A DNA stretch of 64,000 nucleotides from an uncultured Bdellovibrionales bacterium (GTDB lineage: Bacteria; Patescibacteriota; Minisyncoccia; Moranbacterales; DUUL01): contig CAYFUG010000002.1 in the NCBI GenBank assembly GCA_964346295.1, positions 7,355 to 71,354 on the forward strand. The letters run 5' to 3'. Below are positions 478-47,830 of the stretch, in pieces. The translations under genes and the position numbers were made by a program. Every line of letters starts with the position of its first letter. Within the stretch, counting starts at the first letter, position 1. The notes below the pieces were generated by a model. The model was not told the origin of the DNA and ran no database searches. It was given only the letters and a program-made list of their open reading frames with translations.

Positions 478-2619
478 TCAATCGACATAAACTTCCATGC
501 TACTCAACTCCTTGTCAATAATAAAATCGACATACACCTCACCAATTTCATCAATTTCAAAAATCTTATAGTATCTATATTTCCCTGATATTTTTAGCCT
601 TTCTATAAACTCGAAGCTATTAATATCAACTTCTTGCAAAATTTGTATGATTTTCTCTTTTTGTTCTTCCGTGAAATCCGTAAAAAAGGAGGTTCTCTTT
701 TCTGAAATGCTTTTTTTAAACAAATCATTTGCCTTGTCTTTATTTCCTTCTGAGATTGGTGAATTTTTAAAATCAAAAACTTCGATATGTACACAATCAC
801 TATCTCTATCATATTTTATTCTCACAAAATAAACTCCAAGTTCCTTTTCACTGCTTCTCACTTTAGCAATCCATGAAAAGATAGCCTCGTCACTACCATC
901 CACTGAGGGATCTATTTTCTGTGAAGCATTCCTCTCTTTTTGAAAGTAATAAAATTCTTCCATTGAGTCCTCGATATCTTGAAGTTTGAGTCTGCTCACA
1001 AAAAAGTCCCTATCTCTGTGATTATCACTAAGTATAGTTACTCTACCATTCAAGATTGCTTTTTCAATATATTGCTTTAATTTTTGCTGAACAACTTCTT
1101 CTGCTTTTTTTTCATCCTCTTTCAAAGAAATATCTGGGTCGTCATTTTTAATTTTTTCTATTTTTTCCACTTTATGTATGATGCCATGATCATCTATCCA
1201 AACCTTAAAGATCCCATTCTTTTTCTTTACAAAAACAGCTTGTCTCATTTTTCTTCTTCTGTAAACCCTGTGTTTATTTTTAGAACTCAAGAGTACTACA
1301 CCTCCAGTTAAACAAGATTCGATGCTTTGCTTGGTAATTATCTCGCTATTATCAATTGCTTTAATCCCTACAATTATAGCCCCTTGGGGATAATCCAGCG
1401 TTAAACCTGGCAATGAAATAACATTATAAACACCTCTTGGCGTCAGCAACACACCAGATCCTCTAGTTATACCTTGAAAACCATGAGCAGAAGTAACTCT
1501 TTCCTTACTGCCAGAAAAATATTTCTCATCATCAAGTAATTCTTTTAACGCCCCTTCTCTCGAGTCTTTTTTGTTGTAAAGAGAAATCCCTATTGGTTGA
1601 AACTTACCAGCAATAATGCTCTTGCCCTTTAATAATTCTTTAGCATTTTTTATTCTGGACTCTCTTTTGTTTATACTATATCTGGATCTTTTTCCTTGTT
1701 CATCGACAAAATTTCTCCAATCAGCATCTTCTACATTTCTTGTTGTTATACGGGGATTATACCTCGAATATTCCTTTGCTAGTTGATGCACATCAGCATA
1801 TACCCAATCCCTTTCTTCGTCGGAATATTTATAATCTGATGGCTCTGAAGCAAAATAGAGAAGTGGCTTTGCCCTACCAATATCTTTGCCAAATTTTTTA
1901 AATAAATTAGCCAAAAGACCATATGGGATACAATCACGAACTCCTGGAACAGCATCAACACCGCACATTGGACAAGCATTCGAACATCCAAAAGTCAACT
2001 GTATGGAACATAAGTTGCTTACCAATGTTTCTAATTCTTCTCTATTAAATCTTTTCTCTAAACCCAGTGGGAGCGATTCTTCATCTTCTGGTTTTTGCTC
2101 CCCGTATAGAACCTTCTTTTCCCTGACTATATTGTCTAAAATTCTGCGCTGATCTTTTTTAAGCCACTTTTCATAATAGCTCATTTTAGCTAAAAATATA
2201 TCGTTCTCCATTGCCCTGTCCAAAAAAAATTCTAGCTTGCCTCTATCATCAAGATAGCACATTAAATCAGCCATTTCACGAGGATTCAATGAAATCAAAG
2301 AATCTACAACTTCATTGATGCTTTGATTTTTTATGATAATAATTTCGACTGCAATATCCCTTAATAATTTTGAGTACTTTTTAGACAAATCCTCCCCAGC
2401 AAGAAAGCTGGCGCCAAAAGTTATATTCTTTGGGTGTTTTTTTAAATTAGCCTTTACCGCACAAACAAAAAATTCCTTAACACTCGATTCATCCATTGTT
2501 GAAAGAAGGCTTTCTACTTCTTCTGGATTCCATCTTGAAAAATCATCGAAGTCATTAACTTCATAGTTTTTAAGTTCTTTCTTGTTAGATTCAATTTTGA
2601 AATTTCCTGTTTCTTTCAT
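478..2619 (-). CDS. Large hypothetical protein (713 aa) with a central CX3CX2C cysteine triad (C212/C216/C219) at radical-SAM-like spacing; AT-rich compositional outlier
   Basis: Long uninterrupted ORF. Motif LTFGCSNACPMCG is followed about 45 aa later by ASEPS (GGEP-like position) and about 80 aa later by ITTRN (TNG-like position). By eye the region is around 33% GC versus nearly 50% in neighbours. Flanks are AT-rich non-coding. Confidence 0.6.
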   Translation of the reverse strand: MKETGNFKIESNKKELKNYEVNDFDDFSRWNPEEVESLLSTMDESSVKEFFVCAVKANLKKHPKNITFGASFLAGEDLSKKYSKLLRDIAVEIIIIKNQSINEVVDSLISLNPREMADLMCYLDDRGKLEFFLDRAMENDIFLAKMSYYEKWLKKDQRRILDNIVREKKVLYGEQKPEDEESLPLGLEKRFNREELETLVSNLCSIQLTFGCSNACPMCGVDAVPGVRDCIPYGLLANLFKKFGKDIGRAKPLLYFASEPSDYKYSDEERDWVYADVHQLAKEYSRYNPRITTRNVEDADWRNFVDEQGKRSRYSINKRESRIKNAKELLKGKSIIAGKFQPIGISLYNKKDSREGALKELLDDEKYFSGSKERVTSAHGFQGITRGSGVLLTPRGVYNVISLPGLTLDYPQGAIIVGIKAIDNSEIITKQSIESCLTGGVVLLSSKNKHRVYRRRKMRQAVFVKKKNGIFKVWIDDHGIIHKVEKIEKIKNDDPDISLKEDEKKAEEVVQQKLKQYIEKAILNGRVTILSDNHRDRDFFVSRLKLQDIEDSMEEFYYFQKERNASQKIDPSVDGSDEAIFSWIAKVRSSEKELGVYFVRIKYDRDSDCVHIEVFDFKNSPISEGNKDKANDLFKKSISEKRTSFFTDFTEEQKEKIIQILQEVDINSFEFIERLKISGKYRYYKIFEIDEIGEVYVDFIIDKELSSMEVYVD

Positions 2620-3365: not shown

Positions 3366-3509
3366 CTTGTTTTTGCTTTTAGCGTCCTTTTGAAACTACT
3401 GATTAAATTTTACCACCCACCCAACAAAAAACAACCCAGAAAACCCAGGTTGTTGATAGCGTTGATAGCAAGGTTGAACTTACTTGCTCTTCTTAATCTA
3501 AGATAACCC

Positions 3510-3849
3510 CTAATCTGACTCGCCCCGAAATTTTTTTATTGCATCATCTTTTTCTCGCAACGACTTAATAGCATCCGTAATCTGGTTCCAATGTCTTATT
3601 GCATCATAAATATTTTCTTGAACTGACTCTAGGAACTTATCATTGCCTATTCTTTCAGCTTCATCTAGCCATACTCCCATTTTAAGCAATTTCTCCCTAA
3701 AATAAGGAAGTGTCTTCTTTAAATGTTCGTTTTCCGGAGCATTGTTAATTGCCCCCCCCCAATTTCGTTAATAAATTCCTTAAATCCCCAACTCTATCAG
3801 CTCTTTCTTTTTTTCTGTCAATAGGACTATTTTGGCCTAGAGTTTCCAT
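3510..3849 (-). pseudogene. Hypothetical 113-aa gene interrupted by a frameshift inside a G9 (plus-strand C9) homopolymer; candidate phase-variable or sequencing-error site
   Basis: Minus-strand ATG at 3849 gives METLGQNSPIDRKKERADRVGDLRNLLTKLGGGN* with the stop immediately after the G9 tract (plus 3752-3760). Removing one G restores a continuous ORF ending ...AIKSLREKDDAIKKFRGESD* at 3510. Confidence 0.4.
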
Positions 3850-3896
3850 TGTTTTATTTTAACCAATAATTTATTTCAAAAAATAGGCAAAATTGC

Positions 3897-4349
3897 CTAT
3901 TTTTTCTCAGTCTCTTCTTTCTTCTCTTCTTTCTTGGAATCAGCCTCAGCAGGCTTTTCCTCTTTCTTTTCTTCTACCTTCTCTTCCTTTTTAGCAGCTT
4001 CTTCCTTTTGCTTAAATGCCCCTGATTCCTCTTGGGATTTTTCAGCTGCTTCCGTTTTTGAAGCTTCTTTCTCTGGAGTTTCTGGTTTTGGCATTCGGAC
4101 CGGCCGTTTCTTAGCCTCAATTACTCCCTTTTTAACTAGCAAGTTGAAAACCGTATCGGAACAACTAGCCCCCTTTTCTAGCCAGTGCTTAATCCGGTCT
4201 TCTTTTAAAATAGTCTCTTTAGTACTAGGGTCATAACTGCCCAAAGTTTCAATAAAACGTCCCTGGACTGGGAAAGATTTTTCGGCCAAAACAATCCGAT
4301 AAAAAGCTCGGTTTCTTCTGCCTTTGCGAGAAAAACGAATTACCAACAT
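3897..4349 (-). CDS. rpsP: 30S ribosomal protein S16 with a K/E-rich C-terminal extension
   Basis: MLVIRFSRKGRRNRAFYRIVLAEKSFPVQGRFIETLGSYDP matches the bS16 N-terminus; the tail is EEKKEEK low complexity. Confidence 0.9.
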   Translation of the reverse strand: MLVIRFSRKGRRNRAFYRIVLAEKSFPVQGRFIETLGSYDPSTKETILKEDRIKHWLEKGASCSDTVFNLLVKKGVIEAKKRPVRMPKPETPEKEASKTEAAEKSQEESGAFKQKEEAAKKEEKVEEKKEEKPAEADSKKEEKKEETEKK

Positions 4350-16282: not shown

Positions 16283-16311
16283 AAACACTCGACCAATTTC
16301 AGTCTCAGTCT

Positions 16312-16462
16312 AGGGCTTTCAAATTTGAGCAAAGCTCTAGGCGACGCCGAGACTTTGGCCGACCTGTCCCGTCTAGCTTTAGCGATGCGGGAGCCGTACT
16401 GATTGGTACGGTGAGGTCAAAACGCAGGCGGCAACAACGAGATTTGCCAAACTTGAAAATCC
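16312..16462 (+). repeat. Intergenic structured repeat, copy A (about 150 nt), ending 1 nt before the start codon of the downstream gene
   Basis: 5' arm agggctttcaaatttgagcaaagctctagg and 3' arm gtacggtgaggtcaaaacgcaggcggcaacaacgagatttgccaaacttgaaaatcc are shared with copies at 34969-35130, 26175-26289, 61190-61269, 17690-17772 and inverted at 42706-42822. The terminal arms are mutually complementary. Confidence 0.8.
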
Positions 16463-16463
16463 T

Positions 16464-17519
16464 ATGAAAACAACCTATTTTTCCACATTCATCTCCGGCG
16501 CCCAAGAAATAGTCCGACGCGCCCTTCAAAAAAGATCCCGGGTCAAAATCATTGACCTGCTGGACGGTTTAGTAGTGTACCAGACGGACTATAACGAGAA
16601 AGATTTGCGAGAAATTCGCTTTTTTAACAACACTTTTCGTCTCCTGGGCAGCTACCAAAATGTCCACGATTTTCTAGATCTAATCAAGGCCGTTACCAAG
16701 GACAAATCTCTCGGTGGAACTCTCAAAAATCTTTTTACAACCCCTACCACCTATCGGCTATTCACCTCAGAGGAAAACCGCTCTATTAATCCGGGCTTGC
16801 CGGCCTTAGAAACTCTAGAGCAAAAAATCTCTCAAAATCGCTACCTAAAAACCGATTTTAAAAAATACCAACAAGAATTTTGGCTCATTTGGCGAAGAGG
16901 AAACCAGGGCTTTCTAGGCGCTCGTATTACTGGTAAAAAGCCTCTCGCCAAGCACCTCAAAGCTGGACAACTCCGCCCAGAACTGGCTCACTTAATTTGC
17001 CTAGCTTCTCGCCCTGGCCCCCAGGAGGTAATTTTGGATCCCTTTGCCGGCCAAGGAGGATTGCTAACGGAGCGCTTACGAGCTTTTCCTTTTAAAAAAG
17101 CTCTCGCCTTAGAAGAAGACGAGAAACTAGCTAATGACCTCAAGGGTAAAATTTTCCGCGCCTATCCCAAAGAAAAAGTCCAAGTCCGCCGAGAGAGCGC
17201 CCTGGAAATGGGATTTTTAGAAAATAACTCCATTGATAAGATCATCACCGATCCGCCCTGGGGACATTTTAAAAAACTAGATCAACCAGAAGAATTTTAC
17301 ACCCAGATGCTCCAGGAATTTTACCGGGTGCTTAAGTCGAGAGGCCTGGCAGTAATTTTGATGGGCGAGAATTTTCAATTTGACCAGATACTCCAAAGCA
17401 TGACAACTAAAGACAAAAATAATCAGGCAGATCCACTTCCCTCACCTTGGAAGATATCAGCCCAACATCACCTGTTAGTTTCTGGCCGAAAAGCTAATTT
17501 GTGGATTTTAAAAAAATAA
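16464..17519 (+). CDS. THUMP-domain class I SAM-dependent RNA methyltransferase (COG0116-like, N2-guanine/N6-adenine type)
   Basis: DPFAGQGG SAM motif I and DPPWG motif IV; N-terminal THUMP-like region. Confidence 0.8.
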   Translation: MKTTYFSTFISGAQEIVRRALQKRSRVKIIDLLDGLVVYQTDYNEKDLREIRFFNNTFRLLGSYQNVHDFLDLIKAVTKDKSLGGTLKNLFTTPTTYRLFTSEENRSINPGLPALETLEQKISQNRYLKTDFKKYQQEFWLIWRRGNQGFLGARITGKKPLAKHLKAGQLRPELAHLICLASRPGPQEVILDPFAGQGGLLTERLRAFPFKKALALEEDEKLANDLKGKIFRAYPKEKVQVRRESALEMGFLENNSIDKIITDPPWGHFKKLDQPEEFYTQMLQEFYRVLKSRGLAVILMGENFQFDQILQSMTTKDKNNQADPLPSPWKISAQHHLLVSGRKANLWILKK

Positions 17520-17628: not shown

Positions 17629-17689
17629 AAACTAGAAATGACTAACAGTCCAAGAACTTTCTCGTTTTAGGACATTTTTAGAGAAAAGT

Positions 17690-17772
17690 GAGGCTTTAGT
17701 TGAGAATTACTGAAGCGTACAGCGAGAGTAAAACGCAGCTTTTGACAACGAAATTTTCAAAGTGAGAAAGTC
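17690..17772 (+). repeat. Intergenic structured repeat, compact copy E
   Basis: gaggctttagttgagaattactgaagc + gtacagcgagagtaaaacgcagcttttgacaacgaaattttcaaagtgagaaagtc matches the family 5' and 3' blocks; lies just 3' of the tRNA-like gene. Confidence 0.65.
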
Positions 17773-17784
17773 TTAGCAATACAG

Positions 17785-17883
17785 TGCAGACGAGAGGATT
17801 CGAACCTCTAACCTCCTTACTTTCTCTCGTTGACACTGCAACGAGAGAAAGTAAAGCGCTCAGCCTTTTTGAGCTTCGTCTGC
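17785..17883 (-). tRNA. tRNA-like gene with a 25-nt insertion in the anticodon loop forming an 18-bp continuous hairpin; anticodon ambiguous (UUC/Glu if 37/38 intron; GAA/Phe alternative)
   Basis: Minus strand reads GCAGACG-AA-GCUC-AAAAAGGCU-GAGC-G-CUUUA-[32 nt]-UAAGG-AGGUU-AGAGG-UUCGAAU-CCUCU-CGUCUGC-A. It has a 7-bp acceptor stem, D arm with GG, and canonical T arm (G53, UUCGAAU, C61). A8 is atypical. No encoded CCA. Confidence 0.6.
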
Positions 17884-24700: not shown

Positions 24701-25936
24701 ATGAGTTCACTCCAAGACCGAAAAGATCTGGAACCAAGAACCCAGAAACCTAACCAGCCCATTTTGGCTCTTGCCCCCATGGCCGGCTTCACTGACCTCC
24801 CTTTTCGCCTCCTTTGCAAACAACATGGAGCTGATTTGCTGTTCTCTGAGATGATTAGCGCCACTGGACTTTTTCACGAAAAACGAGATAAATCCCTCCA
24901 ACTAGCCCAATCCTGCCCAGAAGACTCTCCGATGTTTTTGCAGCTTTTCGGTTCCGACCCTCAGCATTTCGCCTTCGCCACCCGATTAATCAATCAACTC
25001 CCAGTCAGAGCCAATCCATCTTATTCCAGAAATGATCCTAACAAGAAATCTGAGGAGTTTGTTTTTAAAAAATTTCTAGGAGAATTCGAGCATCGAAGCG
25101 AGATGTACTTAAGGTACGACGAACGAGACGCGGAGAATTCAACAACCAAATTTGAGGAAAACAAACTTCTCAGGCCAGAAGGAATTGACCTAAACCTTGG
25201 CTGCCCCGTCAAAAAAGTCCTTCGCCAAGAGGCCGGCTGTGCTCTAATGGAGAAGCCGCACCTGGTGCGAGAAATTCTCAAGAATATTTTAGGCAACACT
25301 ACTCTCCCGGTTTCTATCAAAATCCGGTCCCGAGGCAAGAGCCTAGACGCCCTCAAGTTTCTAAATGCTCTAGCTGATTTGGACTGGCAATTAGTTACCG
25401 TCCACGCTCGTTCTTTGAATCAAGGTTTTTCCGGCGATCCAGATTGGGCTTTAGTGAAAGAAATCAAGAGAAACTTTCCCCACAAAACCGTTCTGGCCAA
25501 CGGCGGAATTACTGATCTTGCTACCGCCCAAAAAGCCCTAGAAGAAAGTCGAGCTGATGGCTTGGCGCTAGCCCGAGGCGTCCTCGGTAACCCTTGGTTA
25601 TTCAATAAGATCAAGACCAATAGTCGCCCCCTTTCGAAAGGGGAACCAGAAGATTGGCAGTTATCTGAAGCAGAAATATTGGCTACTCCCAGAAAAAAAA
25701 ATGAGGCGCTCGAAAAGCAAATCCCCCTTAGCCGAGTTAGAGCCACCGCCCTCCAGCACGCCAGATTATTTCAACAAATTTTTCCAACAAACGACTTAAA
25801 GCCCCTCCGATCTCATCTTATTTGGTACTTCAAAAATTTTTCTGGAAGCAAAAAAACTCGCTCCCAACTCACTGGAGTGAAAACCTTAGAAGAACTAGAA
25901 AAGATTTTGCAACAAACAATCAGTTCCTCCCTCTAG
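24701..25936 (+). CDS. tRNA-dihydrouridine synthase (Dus family) with internal insertion
   Basis: LALAPMAGFTDLPFRLLCKQHGADLLFSEMISA is the Dus N-terminal signature. Confidence 0.85.
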   Translation: MSSLQDRKDLEPRTQKPNQPILALAPMAGFTDLPFRLLCKQHGADLLFSEMISATGLFHEKRDKSLQLAQSCPEDSPMFLQLFGSDPQHFAFATRLINQLPVRANPSYSRNDPNKKSEEFVFKKFLGEFEHRSEMYLRYDERDAENSTTKFEENKLLRPEGIDLNLGCPVKKVLRQEAGCALMEKPHLVREILKNILGNTTLPVSIKIRSRGKSLDALKFLNALADLDWQLVTVHARSLNQGFSGDPDWALVKEIKRNFPHKTVLANGGITDLATAQKALEESRADGLALARGVLGNPWLFNKIKTNSRPLSKGEPEDWQLSEAEILATPRKKNEALEKQIPLSRVRATALQHARLFQQIFPTNDLKPLRSHLIWYFKNFSGSKKTRSQLTGVKTLEELEKILQQTISSSL

Positions 25937-26174: not shown

Positions 26175-26289
26175 CTTTTAAGTTTTAGGAAAGCTCTAGA
26201 CGAAGTCGAGGTTTTGAATAAGGCGCACTGAAATGTACGGCGATCTCAAAACGCAGGCAACAATAACGAGATTTTCAAAATTTGAAAGC
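26175..26289 (+). repeat. Intergenic structured repeat, copy B (about 115 nt)
   Basis: cttttaagttttaggaaagctctagacgaagtcgag ... gtacggcgatctcaaaacgcaggcaacaataacgagattttcaaaatttgaaagc. The ORF track translates it as MYGDLKTQATITRFSKFESF. Confidence 0.8.
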
Positions 26290-42582: not shown

Positions 42583-42610
42583 TTGACATTTAGTCTCTTT
42601 GTTCTATAAT
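42583..42610 (+). promoter_or_regulatory. Consensus sigma70-type promoter (TTGACA-16 nt-TATAAT)
   Basis: ttgaca at 42583-42588 and tataat at 42605-42610; predicted TSS near 42617. No plus-strand CDS follows. Confidence 0.5.
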
Positions 42611-42705
42611 TCAAGTACAAATCGCTTCCCCCAGTTTACTCCGACTGGAAGCTCCGAGACCTCCGTTCCTCCGGGAATGGGGGTCGTTTATTAGTGGAGG
42701 AATTA

Positions 42706-42822
42706 CGCATTTGGAAAATTTCGTTGTTACAAGCTGCGTTTAGCGCTCACCGTACCCTTCAGTACGCCTCCCGCTAAGCCTCGCTTGCGCCTAGTAATTT
42801 CCTCAAATCCGTAATCCCTAGG
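42706..42822 (-). repeat. Intergenic structured repeat, copy K, inverted orientation
   Basis: Minus strand reads ctagggattacggatttgaggaaattactaggcgcaagcgagg ... gtacggtgagcgctaaacgcagcttgtaacaacgaaattttccaaatgcg, matching the family 5' and 3' arms. Confidence 0.75.
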
Positions 42823-42866
42823 CTATACATCAGCGAGCGACCATTGAAGGCTATAATTATTAAGTA

Positions 42867-42886
42867 CCCCGCCTTGACGGGGTTTT
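42867..42886. terminator. Intrinsic terminator (likely bidirectional) between the candidate transcript and the convergent mazF-like gene
   Basis: ccccg-ccttga-cgggg followed by tttt on the plus strand. Confidence 0.6.
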
Positions 42887-42979: not shown

Positions 42980-43375
42980 CTAGAATCCCAGCAACCTAGC
43001 CAACCCAGCTTTCACTTCATTAAATTCCCCCCGGTTAATCTTAGAAATCTTTCGTAGCAGTCGCTTGCTACTCAAAGCCCGCAATTGCGACAAAATCACT
43101 TGGTAACCTTCTTTTTCGTAAGTGATCGGTTGGTAATACCGCCCTTGTTTTTGCTGGCTAGTCACCGGCAACCCCCAAAAGAGATTATGATTAAATTTTT
43201 TCAATATCAAAACCGGCCGCTCAAATTTATCGTGCTTGCCATCTTGCTCATGGCCAATATTAACGCCTAGGCTACTCCACCAAATTTCTCGCTCCTTAAA
43301 ATAAAGCTTTTCCTTGCGCTTAACCCCATGCAACTGCTTTTTTTGCTTATTCCAAGTATCAAAATCTTTTTTCAT
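42980..43375 (-). CDS. PemK/MazF-family endoribonuclease toxin with 20-aa N-terminal extension; no adjacent antitoxin gene
   Basis: REIWWSSLGVNIGHEQDGKHDKFERPVLIL...GLPVTSQ...VILSQLRALSSKRLLRKISKINRGEFNEVKAGLARLL aligns to the MazF/Kid G-E-Q-G/RP-LVL/PITS/DQIRTIDKSRL pattern. Confidence 0.7.
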   Translation of the reverse strand: MKKDFDTWNKQKKQLHGVKRKEKLYFKEREIWWSSLGVNIGHEQDGKHDKFERPVLILKKFNHNLFWGLPVTSQQKQGRYYQPITYEKEGYQVILSQLRALSSKRLLRKISKINRGEFNEVKAGLARLLGF

Positions 43376-43437
43376 TTTATTAAAGTCTTATTTTAAAACA
43401 GTTTCCAATACAGACTCGCTGTCGTAAACTTACTGTC

Positions 43438-43469
43438 ATTCCGGAATTTCCACGGGAAATATCCGGAAT
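43438..43469. promoter_or_regulatory. Near-perfect 14-bp inverted repeat upstream of the mazF-like gene (candidate operator)
   Basis: attccggaatttcc-acgg-gaaatatccggaat. Confidence 0.4.
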
Positions 43470-43493
43470 CTTAGTTAAATAAATAACAAATAT

Positions 43494-43730
43494 TTAACTC
43501 AAAACAGTTCCAATTTCTTCCTGAAATATCCCTGCCAATAAAACCAACCAAATAACTAAACTGATCAAAAACAACCCTACAGCAAAAAGAACTTTCCTCC
43601 AAGAACTTAAGCCCCTGATTTTCTTCTTGAAAGTAAATAATAAAACAACAAAAAGTACCAATGTTGGAGACAAAAGAAGCCCGATTCCAAAAAGTATAGG
43701 CCCTCCAGAATGCCCAAAATCTGCTATCAT
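43494..43730 (-). CDS. Small two-TM membrane protein, paralogue of 44391..44642
   Basis: MIADFGHSGGPILFGIGLLLSPTLVLFVVLLFTFKKKIRGLSSWRKVLFAVGLFLISLVIWLVLLAG aligns along its length with the paralogue. Confidence 0.5.
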   Translation of the reverse strand: MIADFGHSGGPILFGIGLLLSPTLVLFVVLLFTFKKKIRGLSSWRKVLFAVGLFLISLVIWLVLLAGIFQEEIGTVLS

Positions 43731-43771: not shown

Positions 43772-44401
43772 CTAGAAATTACCAAGAAAGTCTCTTGCCT
43801 TCCTTAGCGCCCTTCCTCGGTGGCTAACTTGATCCTTTTCCTGGAGAGTAATCTCCGCCTCCGTTTTATCTAGAGAGGGAAGATAGAACACCGGATCATA
43901 ACCGAATCCACCTGTCCCCCGCGGCTCTGTTGCAATTTGACCTTCGTTCACCCCTCGCCAAGTTCGGGCTTGTTCTTTCTGAGGATCATACACCGCTACC
44001 ACCGCCACAAAACGCGCCGTGCGTTCTTTTTCTGGCACATCCTTCAACTCCTTTAGGAGTTTTCGATAACGATCCTCGTCACTCCCCGCACAATACCGCG
44101 CTGAATAAACTCCCGGTCGCCCGCCCAAAGCATCCACCTCCAAACCAGAGTCATCTGCCAGAGTCAGCATCCCAAATCGATTGCCTAAAATAATCGCCTT
44201 GATCAAAGCATTGCCTTCGAAAGTCTCCGCCGTCTCTTCTACTTCCAGCTCCTCCGGGGCAACTCTTCTCCCCAAAAACTCGCCCAGATCCGCCAGGCTC
44301 ACCAATTCCAAATCCAAGCCCTTCAAAGCCTCTCTGATTTCTATCACCTTACCCTTGTTTTGAGTCGCGATTAGTAACTTTCTCATAGTCCTAAACACCA
44401 C
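43772..44401 (-). CDS. rdgB: Non-canonical purine NTP pyrophosphatase (RdgB/Ham1)
   Basis: LLIATQNKGKVIEIREAL ... TFEGNALIKA ... GFGYDPVF are Ham1 family blocks. Confidence 0.9.
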   Translation of the reverse strand: MVFRTMRKLLIATQNKGKVIEIREALKGLDLELVSLADLGEFLGRRVAPEELEVEETAETFEGNALIKAIILGNRFGMLTLADDSGLEVDALGGRPGVYSARYCAGSDEDRYRKLLKELKDVPEKERTARFVAVVAVYDPQKEQARTWRGVNEGQIATEPRGTGGFGYDPVFYLPSLDKTEAEITLQEKDQVSHRGRALRKARDFLGNF

Positions 44402-44642
44402 AAAGCATAAGCCCTACTGCTAAAAATATCCAACTAATAAAACTAAGGACATAGAACCCCGCTCCCAATAATAACTTCTTCCAGAAAACTAGAGCTTTAA
44501 GCTTCTCCTTGAAAATAATCAATAAAATAGCAAAAATAACCAAGGGAGGTAAAAACAAAAGTGCCAACAAAAAAAATACATAAGACTGGGGCCCAGCCAA
44601 GGCTGAACAACCTCCAATAATTTTTGAACAATCTCCAATCAT
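44391..44642 (-). CDS. Small two-TM membrane protein, paralogue of 43494..43730; overlaps rdgB by 11 nt
   Basis: MIGDCSKIIGGCSALAGPQSYVFFLLALLFLPPLVIFAILLIIFKEKLKALVFWKKLLLGAGFYVLSFISW. A duplicated 5' fragment (ccaaaatctgctatcat) lies upstream. Confidence 0.5.
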   Translation of the reverse strand: MIGDCSKIIGGCSALAGPQSYVFFLLALLFLPPLVIFAILLIIFKEKLKALVFWKKLLLGAGFYVLSFISWIFLAVGLMLCGV

Positions 44643-47546: not shown

Positions 47547-47769
47547 AGAAACAAAAGATTAACAAATTTTATTACTAACCACAGATACCAACCCTTCTCG
47601 CTAAAAAGCCAAGATTAGCCTTGATGTTATTAAGCCAATCTTAGCACTAATGACAAAAAAATCAAAAGAGTCTCCCGGCAGGAAGACTCTTTTGAGAAAA
47701 TAAAGACTTAAGGTTTTCAATTTTTAGAAAATTTTAGGAAAAATCGAGTACTGAGCGAGATATACCGAA

Positions 47770-47830
47770 GTGTATAACAAACGAGTAACAGAGATTTTGA
47801 CATCAAAATTTTCAAAATTTGGAAGCCCCT
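47770..47830. repeat. Diverged repeat-family copy with palindromic core, directly 3' of tuf
   Basis: aacaaacgagtaacagagattttgacatcaaaattttcaaaatttggaagcccc resembles the family 3' block plus the palindrome. Confidence 0.45.

Follow-up and report, generated by a model that had tools for sequence, protein, structure and literature searches.

MazF and PemK are textbook type II toxins, and the catalytic residues of MazF are an arginine (R29 in Escherichia coli MazF, R25 in EndoA) and a threonine or serine (T52 and T48 in the same two proteins). The type III toxin ToxN also adopts a fold related to Kid and MazF, and its RNA inhibits it; type III RNAs are tandem repeats encoded upstream of the toxin gene on the same strand, followed by a terminator before the toxin gene, and are processed by the toxin. 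A further arrangement is found in the Bacillus subtilis pairs txpA/RatA and bsrG/SR4, in which the genes for the toxin and for a small RNA (sRNA) converge and overlap at their 3' ends. Here we describe a gene of the MazF/PemK family in a 64,000-nucleotide (nt) stretch of a Patescibacteria contig (CAYFUG010000002.1; the whole stretch is called the window below), together with a short structured RNA gene that faces it. Taken by itself, the toxin gene is unremarkable among the members of its catalogued superfamily; its pairing with an uncatalogued RNA, which recurs at related loci across Patescibacteria, or candidate phyla radiation (CPR) bacteria, is the interesting part.

The closest described system is carried by Campylobacter. 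In plasmid and phage collections, the only relatives came from Campylobacterota, namely from pVir and further Campylobacter plasmids, from CJIE4 prophages and from a plasmid of Nitratiruptor. The Campylobacter jejuni 81-176 gene pVir0047 (WP_011117588; NC_005012 30630-31034) is annotated as a PemK/MazF toxin and, like the CPR toxins, has no annotated protein antitoxin. Its product has 38% identity to the CPR toxin by BLASTP, and hhalign, with a value of 99.3% over 129 columns, aligns it with the CPR profile from end to end, the N-terminal FDxWNxxKK helix included. Between pVir0047 and pVir0048 lies the 77-nt sRNA CJpv3, which runs on the minus strand from 31119 to 31043 (Dugar et al. 2013, PMC3656092 Table S12) and was detected, with its own promoter, by differential RNA sequencing (dRNA-seq) and Northern blot (PMC3656092). 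After correction for a 4-nt offset between two pVir records, the 3' end of CJpv3 falls 5 nt past the pVir0047 stop codon, and its start coincides with the start that we predict from a TGnTATAAT element. CJpv3 and pVir0047 share the layout of the CPR module, with a convergent sRNA at the 3' end of the toxin gene, and on pVir the transcription of this sRNA is directly evidenced. CjrA of the 81-176 plasmid pVir is cited as an antisense sRNA antitoxin of type I, and the system is cited as one whose RNA antitoxin is needed for plasmid maintenance (PMC10470494, PMC7826846). This Campylobacter plasmid system, the sole studied relative, is not generally recognised as MazF-like.

The window gene encodes a protein of 131 amino acids (aa) that the original prediction assigned to the MazF/PemK family, and our analysis bears out this assignment. 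The Pfam family PF02452 (PemK_toxin) matches residues 28-129 with 49.1 bits against a cut-off of 23.1, and the motifs GHEQDG, RPVLIL, LPVTS and SQLRALSSKRL, on which the prediction relied, are all present. With the NCBIfam MazF equivalog model, whose cut-off is 120 bits, the protein reaches only 14 bits, indicating a member of the superfamily rather than an orthologue of E. coli MazF. The AlphaFold2 (AF2) model, with a predicted local distance difference test score (pLDDT) of 84, consists of the SH3-like MazF barrel and a C-terminal helix. Foldseek superposes this model on MazF of Staphylococcus aureus, Mycobacterium tuberculosis, B. subtilis and E. coli with template modelling scores of 0.7-0.8 at about 20% identity, and with a probability of 1.0 against 4mzp, 5hjz, 1ne8 and 5cr2. 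A profile built from 37 toxin homologues (alignment A1) reaches solved structures weakly, with B. subtilis EndoA/YdcE at E = 2e-4, and aligns R53-P54 of the toxin to EndoA R25 and T72 to EndoA T48. Among the 37 homologues, R53-P54 is invariant and T72 is kept in at least 90%, and E43, in the loop between beta1 and beta2, is also invariant or nearly so in the subfamily. The toxin is a MazF/PemK-family protein with its catalytic positions intact, and would be expected to act as a sequence-specific, toxic endoribonuclease.

Compared with the type II toxins MazF, PemK and Kid, the window toxin keeps the fold, the catalytic arginine and threonine and the beta1-beta2 glutamate. In contrast to classical MazF, it has some 27 additional residues at the N-terminus and an insertion of 5 residues ahead of the RP motif. 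The basic N-terminal extension noted in the original prediction is conserved in the family, with a helix predicted by AF2 in which W8 and K12 are invariant, and the pVir homologue from Campylobacter has this helix too (FDEWNEVKK). More than 500 homologues with 45-60% identity span the full protein, the extension included, nearly all of them from Patescibacteria/CPR assemblies. An exhaustive profile search, counted in clusters at 50% identity, gave a subfamily size of 410 at E <= 1e-30 and 1,914 at E <= 1e-10.

To compare the surroundings of the gene, we used 80 fetched genomic loci of related toxins together with the contigs of the window gene itself, calling open reading frames (ORFs) greedily in 81 loci and taking as neighbours the ORFs up to three genes on either side. 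No conserved neighbour was found among the 80 loci, in which 430 ORFs fell into 377 clusters and no cluster was present in more than 5 loci. The gene that precedes the toxin varied freely in size and strand, and the two nearest relatives of the window toxin (60% and 57% identity) had unrelated gene neighbourhoods. An all-against-all BLAST of 84 small same-strand ORFs at most 80 nt away from the toxin gene gave mutual similarity only in near-identical genomes, and when 46 of these were scanned against Pfam, the scan returned one unrelated HicB-like domain and no MazE, PemI, AbrB, ribbon-helix-helix (RHH) or Phd domain. In the window, no small ORF for a protein antitoxin adjoins the toxin gene. 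Thus, as the original prediction had stated for the window and as we find in the 80 orthologous loci, there is no protein antitoxin gene in the window or in the whole subfamily. Unlike type II MazEF loci, these loci have no MazE, PemI, AbrB or RHH gene on either side, and the partner is an RNA. The RNA gene was discovered because a faint likeness among downstream "ORFs" was traced to translations of this conserved gene.

In nearly all loci, the last conserved codon of the toxin gene is followed on the toxin strand by a block consisting of TAAAAAACGA, a hairpin that is rich in G+C and varies in sequence, (A)TCTCGGAG, a short hairpin, CATTTGTA, TAGTATA, about 17 nt and TGTCAA. Read on the opposite strand, this block begins with a promoter, TTGACA and TATAcT separated by 17 nt that often contain TG, and the RNA starts 7 nt later. 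The promoter pattern TTGACA-17-(TG)nTATAcT-7-ACA precedes the RNA in 76 related loci. The resulting sRNA is about 55-75 nt long and has the architecture 5'-ACAAAUGG-hairpin 1-UCCGAGA-hairpin 2-UCGUUUUUU, with two covarying hairpins and a U-tract terminator. We aligned 46 sRNAs from other loci (alignment A2) and built from them a covariance model, R1, from both of which the window sequence was left out. R1 detected the RNA, convergent with and adjoining the toxin gene, in 77 of the 80 related Patescibacteria loci, and the other three contain variants recognisable by eye. Two loci outside the model, those of the nearest relatives, scored 60.8 and 48.5 bits, and in both the RNA directly adjoins the stop codon. 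In most loci, the modelled 3' end of the RNA lies over the toxin stop codon by 1-2 nt (median gap, -2 nt), and 14 toxin ORFs extend at least 20 nt into the RNA gene. At nine loci (L028, L039, L043, L046, L050, L051, L070, L071 and L078), the canonical TAA stop codon is lost and the toxin ORF continues for a further 48-162 nt across the RNA gene, which accounts for longer, "C-terminally extended" database proteins such as P0106.

The structure of the RNA is supported by covariation in an 85-row alignment that was compared with 500 shuffles. Pairing is kept in 90% of cells, and 12 of the 13 pairs show compensatory changes. Doubly changed cells number 189 as against 55 in the shuffles, none of which (0/500) reached the observed score, and slid registers of the structure all scored far lower. 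G-U pairs outnumber A-C pairs by 43 to 19 on the proposed strand, which supports an RNA transcribed from the strand opposite the toxin. A peptide encoded by the RNA was considered and rejected: an AUG near the 5' end occurs in 55 of 82 RNAs, ORF lengths vary between 2 and 79 aa and no frame is maintained. Rfam, including the pemK motif RF02913, gave no match at gathering score in the window and 16 loci, and the surroundings of the RNA had none even at E values of up to 10. The RF02913 motif belongs to the "224 candidate structured RNAs" set; it is likewise a conserved RNA structure associated with pemK-family genes and is catalogued as cis-regulatory. In contrast, the CPR RNA lies on the opposite strand, downstream and behind its own promoter, and there is no covariance match between the two.

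The association also holds in the reverse direction. When a 20-mer taken from the sRNA alone was searched against metagenome contigs, 50 of its 56 occurrences faced a MazF-like frame within 620 nt; of the other six, three were too near a contig end to test and three had no toxin (L117:1005, L131:750 and L130:4508). In four of the 50, all that is left of the toxin is its C-terminal third, which is fused behind another gene (L094:1713, L123:2667, L130:2908 and L135:1931). At these truncated or toxin-less sites the RNA genes are intact and represent orphan "antitoxin" RNAs. No toxin without an RNA-like element was found. The sRNA exists on the strand opposite the toxin, with its own promoter and a conserved structure, and is tightly associated with the toxin in both directions. 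That the RNA is kept when the toxin decays, and not the reverse, fits what would be expected of an antitoxin. In several genomes, between two and four copies of the toxin gene are clustered in a few kilobases; locus L030, for example, has copies at 22-405, 617-1000, 1212-1649 and 3433-3867. R1 finds an own RNA at two of these four, at both copies in L031 and at both in L046, and a second toxin copy at the edge of locus L026 has no RNA match. Extra RNA copies away from a toxin lie at L027:3891-3957 and L070:2441-2500. The patchy distribution, changing location and tandem copies better fit a selfish toxin-antitoxin (TA) module than a housekeeping ribonucleoprotein.

In the window, R1 gave a single match in the 64 kb (42617-42692, plus strand), which covers the full length of the model with 28 bits and E = 1.3e-5 and begins seven bases past the promoter, and the fold of this RNA has a z-score of -4.1. 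Its long hairpin 1 has likenesses in loci L001, L010, L035, L036, L045 and L047. The RNA and the toxin stop codon are separated by 287 nt, and part of this gap is taken up by a multicopy palindromic repeat. The module is nevertheless intact, and contigs from several samples carry it unchanged. Between the toxin stop codon and the sRNA gene, no terminator is predicted on the minus strand, so the toxin transcript could read through the repeat into the RNA gene. The original prediction had named a convergent small RNA as one possible non-canonical antitoxin. Such an RNA exists, behind a promoter matching the consensus at 12 of 12 positions, and the comparative evidence strongly supports it as the partner; the whole transcript of about 270 nt does not qualify, since its middle is the multicopy repeat and only the first 76 nt are conserved. 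The region is a composite of the partner RNA, the inserted repeat and a second terminator. A TATAAT hexamer directly precedes the second terminator hairpin (42853-42883, plus strand); taken with the U-tract of the RNA, which is weakened, it suggests that transcripts of about 76 and about 270 nt may both arise from the promoter at 42583.

The expression signals of the toxin gene differ from those of the RNA. The toxin promoter is much further from consensus than the sRNA promoter. A tetramer resembling a Shine-Dalgarno (SD) sequence precedes 3 of 55 toxin genes, and 17 of the 55 look leaderless, with a TATAAT-like hexamer 6-8 nt before the ATG, as against 4% at random positions; examples are L014, L022, L056, L077 and L079, just upstream of locus position 4001. 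These patterns suggest that the toxin mRNAs are probably leaderless. The possibility that the RNA pairs in trans with the toxin mRNA at its 5' end or start codon was evaluated and discarded, as cognate pairs reached -16.9 kcal/mol and non-cognate pairs -17.7 kcal/mol (p = 0.89). Because SD sequences are rare and cognate 5' pairing is no better, the RNA would not act at the ribosome-binding site.

We consider it likely that the sRNA serves as the antitoxin by one route or another. A more specific proposal, for which we see an even chance, is that toxin and RNA antitoxin form a module widespread in Patescibacteria that works mainly by cis-antisense pairing. The toxin, a MazF-fold endoribonuclease with an extra basic N-terminal helix, would be made from a short-leader or leaderless mRNA without an SD sequence. 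On the opposite strand, an RNA of about 55-75 nt would be transcribed from its own near-consensus promoter to an intrinsic terminator that normally lies over the toxin stop codon, and the toxin transcript, with no terminator of its own before the RNA gene, would read into that gene. The abundant sRNA would then pair with the complementary 3' end of the toxin mRNA and lower toxin expression, and direct contact between RNA and protein may add to this antisense action. In the window, insertion of the repeat would have stretched the layout by 287 nt and left both parts intact. Toxicity, neutralisation and the mode of neutralisation are here predicted from the genomic comparison.

The antisense route is favoured because the two genes are always convergent, the RNA lies over the stop codon or the ORF, no terminator is predicted for the toxin transcript before the RNA gene, the sRNA promoter is much the closer to consensus and the Campylobacter system provides an antisense precedent. 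The convergent arrangement with 3'-end overlap is also that of txpA/RatA and bsrG/SR4, and SymE/SymR and RalR/RalA show that a type I system may have a toxin other than a membrane peptide (PMC4041452). Unlike in those type I systems, the CPR toxin is a MazF-fold RNase, the RNA sequence is strongly conserved across the superphylum, there is no pairing at the 5' end or translation start, and the toxin mRNAs mostly lack SD sequences. Several points weigh against this route. Toxins of type I are typically small and hydrophobic peptides rather than RNases. The 287-nt gap in the window means that an overlap there would need the putative read-through. Moreover, unpaired or invariant positions of the RNA (ACAAAUGG, CCGAG and a G-C pair that never covaries) are conserved beyond what cis-antisense would need, which hints at recognition by a protein. 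The equation of cjpT/cjrA (Shen et al. 2016) with pVir0047/CJpv3, suggested by position, is probable rather than certain, and any RNA homology across phyla would be hypothetical, as R1 gave no significant match on the Campylobacter and Nitratiruptor loci. The conserved positions would be explained if the sRNA bound the MazF-like protein as a pseudo-substrate or inhibitor, perhaps via the N-terminal helix, so that the enzyme and not its mRNA would be neutralised, with the convergent layout serving only for linkage and shared termination. Such a type III-like mechanism, the main alternative, which we consider possible but rather unlikely, would agree with the conserved basic helix, whose invariant W8 and K12 have no counterpart in classical MazF, and with a window module that is intact and identical in several samples despite the 287-nt displacement. 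It also has a precedent in ToxN, with its related fold and inhibitory RNA, and type III systems in general (ToxIN, CptIN and TenpIN) resemble the CPR module in combining a Kid/MazF-like RNase with an adjoining structured RNA. The CPR RNA might then, tentatively, represent a new antitoxin class: a single-unit, convergent RNA that binds protein through ACAAAUGG/CCGAG and the extra N-terminal helix. However, the CPR RNA has its own promoter and terminator and shows neither the tandem repeats nor the upstream same-strand layout of ToxIN. A protein-binding RNA would need neither the invariable convergence nor the near-constant position over the stop codon, and the sole experimental relative is cited as antisense, type I.

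Two further explanations dispense with an RNA antitoxin. The protein might be a domesticated RNA-processing or RNA-binding protein, with the sRNA as its substrate, its cofactor or a regulator of a neighbouring gene. The modules do lie among housekeeping genes in very small genomes, the RNA sequence is conserved, PADLOC gave no match for the module, and 2.9 million viral contigs yielded one toxin match, which had no sRNA. In contrast, patchy spread, variable location, tandem multicopy arrays and toxin remnants beside a retained RNA are signatures of selfish TA modules, relatives reside on Campylobacter plasmids and prophages, and a plasmid-stabilising TA role is reported by the papers citing the pVir system, all of which make a non-TA role improbable. 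The original prediction included among its possibilities a true orphan MazF, whose partner was lost or whose activity is restrained by its N-terminal extension, with an upstream palindrome as a typical autoregulatory operator. The lack of a protein antitoxin and the conservation of the extension would suit this idea, and the palindrome is real and stable: the inverted repeat is near-perfect, and the 118-nt spacer that contains it (43376-43493) folds with a z-score of -3.4, equalled by 3 of 200 shuffles. Yet a conserved RNA partner is present in the window and at essentially every related locus, so the lost-partner view is not supported, nor is that of the palindrome as a typical autoregulatory operator. 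The palindrome lies 24 nt past the stop codon of the upstream gene and has no U-tract. The nearest -10-like hexamer of the toxin gene is some 40 nt or more downstream of it, whereas a type II operator would lie over the promoter. The palindrome is also locus-specific, with no counterpart before the toxin in related loci, and has no antitoxin protein to bind it. Nor is its arm a repeated motif, as it matches 11 times in the window where 11.75 matches are expected. We regard the orphan explanation as very improbable; the palindrome might form a stem-loop at the 3' end of the upstream transcript or serve locally as a protein site. The cis-antisense module thus remains our preferred explanation of the locus, whose features are listed in Table 1.

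Table 1. Features of the toxin-sRNA locus, in window positions
Feature	Position	Strand	Basis
Sigma-70-type promoter, TTGACA-16 nt-TATAAT, 12/12, start near 42617	42583..42610	+	promoter match
Conserved convergent small RNA, probable RNA antitoxin: ACAAAU, extended hairpin 1, UCCGAGA, terminator hairpin, UCGUUUAUU	42617..42692	+	covariance model R1
Terminator hairpin of the small RNA, 12 pairs, then weakened U-tract GUUUAUU	42658..42685	+	
Palindromic repeat between small RNA and toxin stop codon, outside the conserved module	42693..42826	.	nhmmer: five further copies in the window and an opposite-strand self-match
Second terminator-like hairpin and T-run; could end read-through from the small-RNA promoter	42866..42883	+	
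MazF/PemK-fold endoribonuclease-like toxin gene, 131 aa, ATG start	42980..43375	-	ORF, Pfam, homologues, AF2/Foldseek
Basic N-terminal extension, codons 1-27, helix 3-18 predicted; F5, W8 and K12 family-conserved	43295..43375	-	alignment A1, AF2
Inverted repeat, arms 43438-43451 and 43456-43470 (14/15 nt, one bulge, 4-nt loop)	43438..43470	.	locus-specific
Upstream two-transmembrane (two-TM) membrane protein gene, 78 aa	43494-43730	-	ORF

All the elements that the original prediction had described are present in the window sequence, and the spacer upstream of the toxin gene contains no ORF of 20 aa or more on the strand of the gene. Two plus-strand ORFs overlap the start of the toxin gene, and on the minus strand an ORF of 43 aa covers the end of the upstream membrane-protein gene in a different frame. 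The toxin gene is located between rdgB with a small membrane protein gene on one side and an aminotransferase gene on the other, and genes for EF-Tu, ClpP, S1, cmk, tilS and ftsH are nearby. The 78-aa membrane protein indeed has a paralogue upstream of the Ham1/RdgB gene, an ORF of 83 aa that shares 36% identity with it over 44 aa (E = 7e-10). The two paralogous two-TM proteins, at 43494-43730 and 44391-44642 on the minus strand, flank rdgB/Ham1, and neither exceeds a Pfam threshold. The small membrane protein, also suggested as an antitoxin, was rejected as a partner, since it neighbours the toxin at no other locus.

The repeat that separates the RNA from the toxin gene belongs to a family of palindromic repeats of about 110-135 nt, similar to repetitive extragenic palindromic (REP) sequences or miniature inverted-repeat transposable elements (MITEs), which occurs in six copies in the 64 kb and has no Rfam match. 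The copies lie at 42693-42826 on the plus strand and at 16306-16468, 17650-17772, 26182-26284, 25061-25154 and 47716-47829 on the minus strand, and share the core ttgaaaatttcgttgt...ctgcgtt...ccgtac..ttcagtac...cctagaaatttcc. One copy lies 12 nt from a tRNA gene (17785-17883, minus strand) that Rfam detects with 47 bits and ARAGORN missed; this gene carries a 28-nt, intron-like insertion in the anticodon loop.

Across phyla, the Campylobacter and Nitratiruptor RNAs share size, position and a hairpin-rich fold with the CPR RNA, but sequence likeness is undetectable. CJpv3 folds into three hairpins, whereas the CPR RNA has two, and the Campylobacter system is borne by plasmids or prophages, whereas the CPR modules are chromosomal and often multicopy. 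On the Nitratiruptor plasmid (L086), a 62-aa ORF of the RHH/CopG-like type (1955-2143, plus strand) follows the toxin gene and putative RNA and precedes rep; it probably serves plasmid copy control and could be an extra regulator of the module.

Annotation pipelines give all members of the subfamily the label "type II toxin-antitoxin system PemK/MazF family toxin". The comparative evidence says instead that the "orphan" status of these toxins would be an annotation artefact and that the subfamily is paired one-to-one with an uncatalogued structured RNA, a pairing that corrects a systematic mis-annotation and explains apparently orphan toxins. We found no paper on the pairing of a MazF-type toxin with a small RNA in CPR bacteria, for which, to our knowledge, almost no regulatory RNAs are known, and these bacteria thereby gain a well-supported and easily testable sRNA family. 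If cjrA/cjpT is indeed the pVir pair, the single plasmid example would be the visible tip of a large family. The module also offers a compact system for asking whether, and by which route, RNA controls a MazF-fold enzyme. Should the RNA prove to bind the protein, thousands of database "type II MazF toxins" would belong to a distinct RNA-controlled type of TA system, and the MazF and ToxN branches of the fold would be linked.

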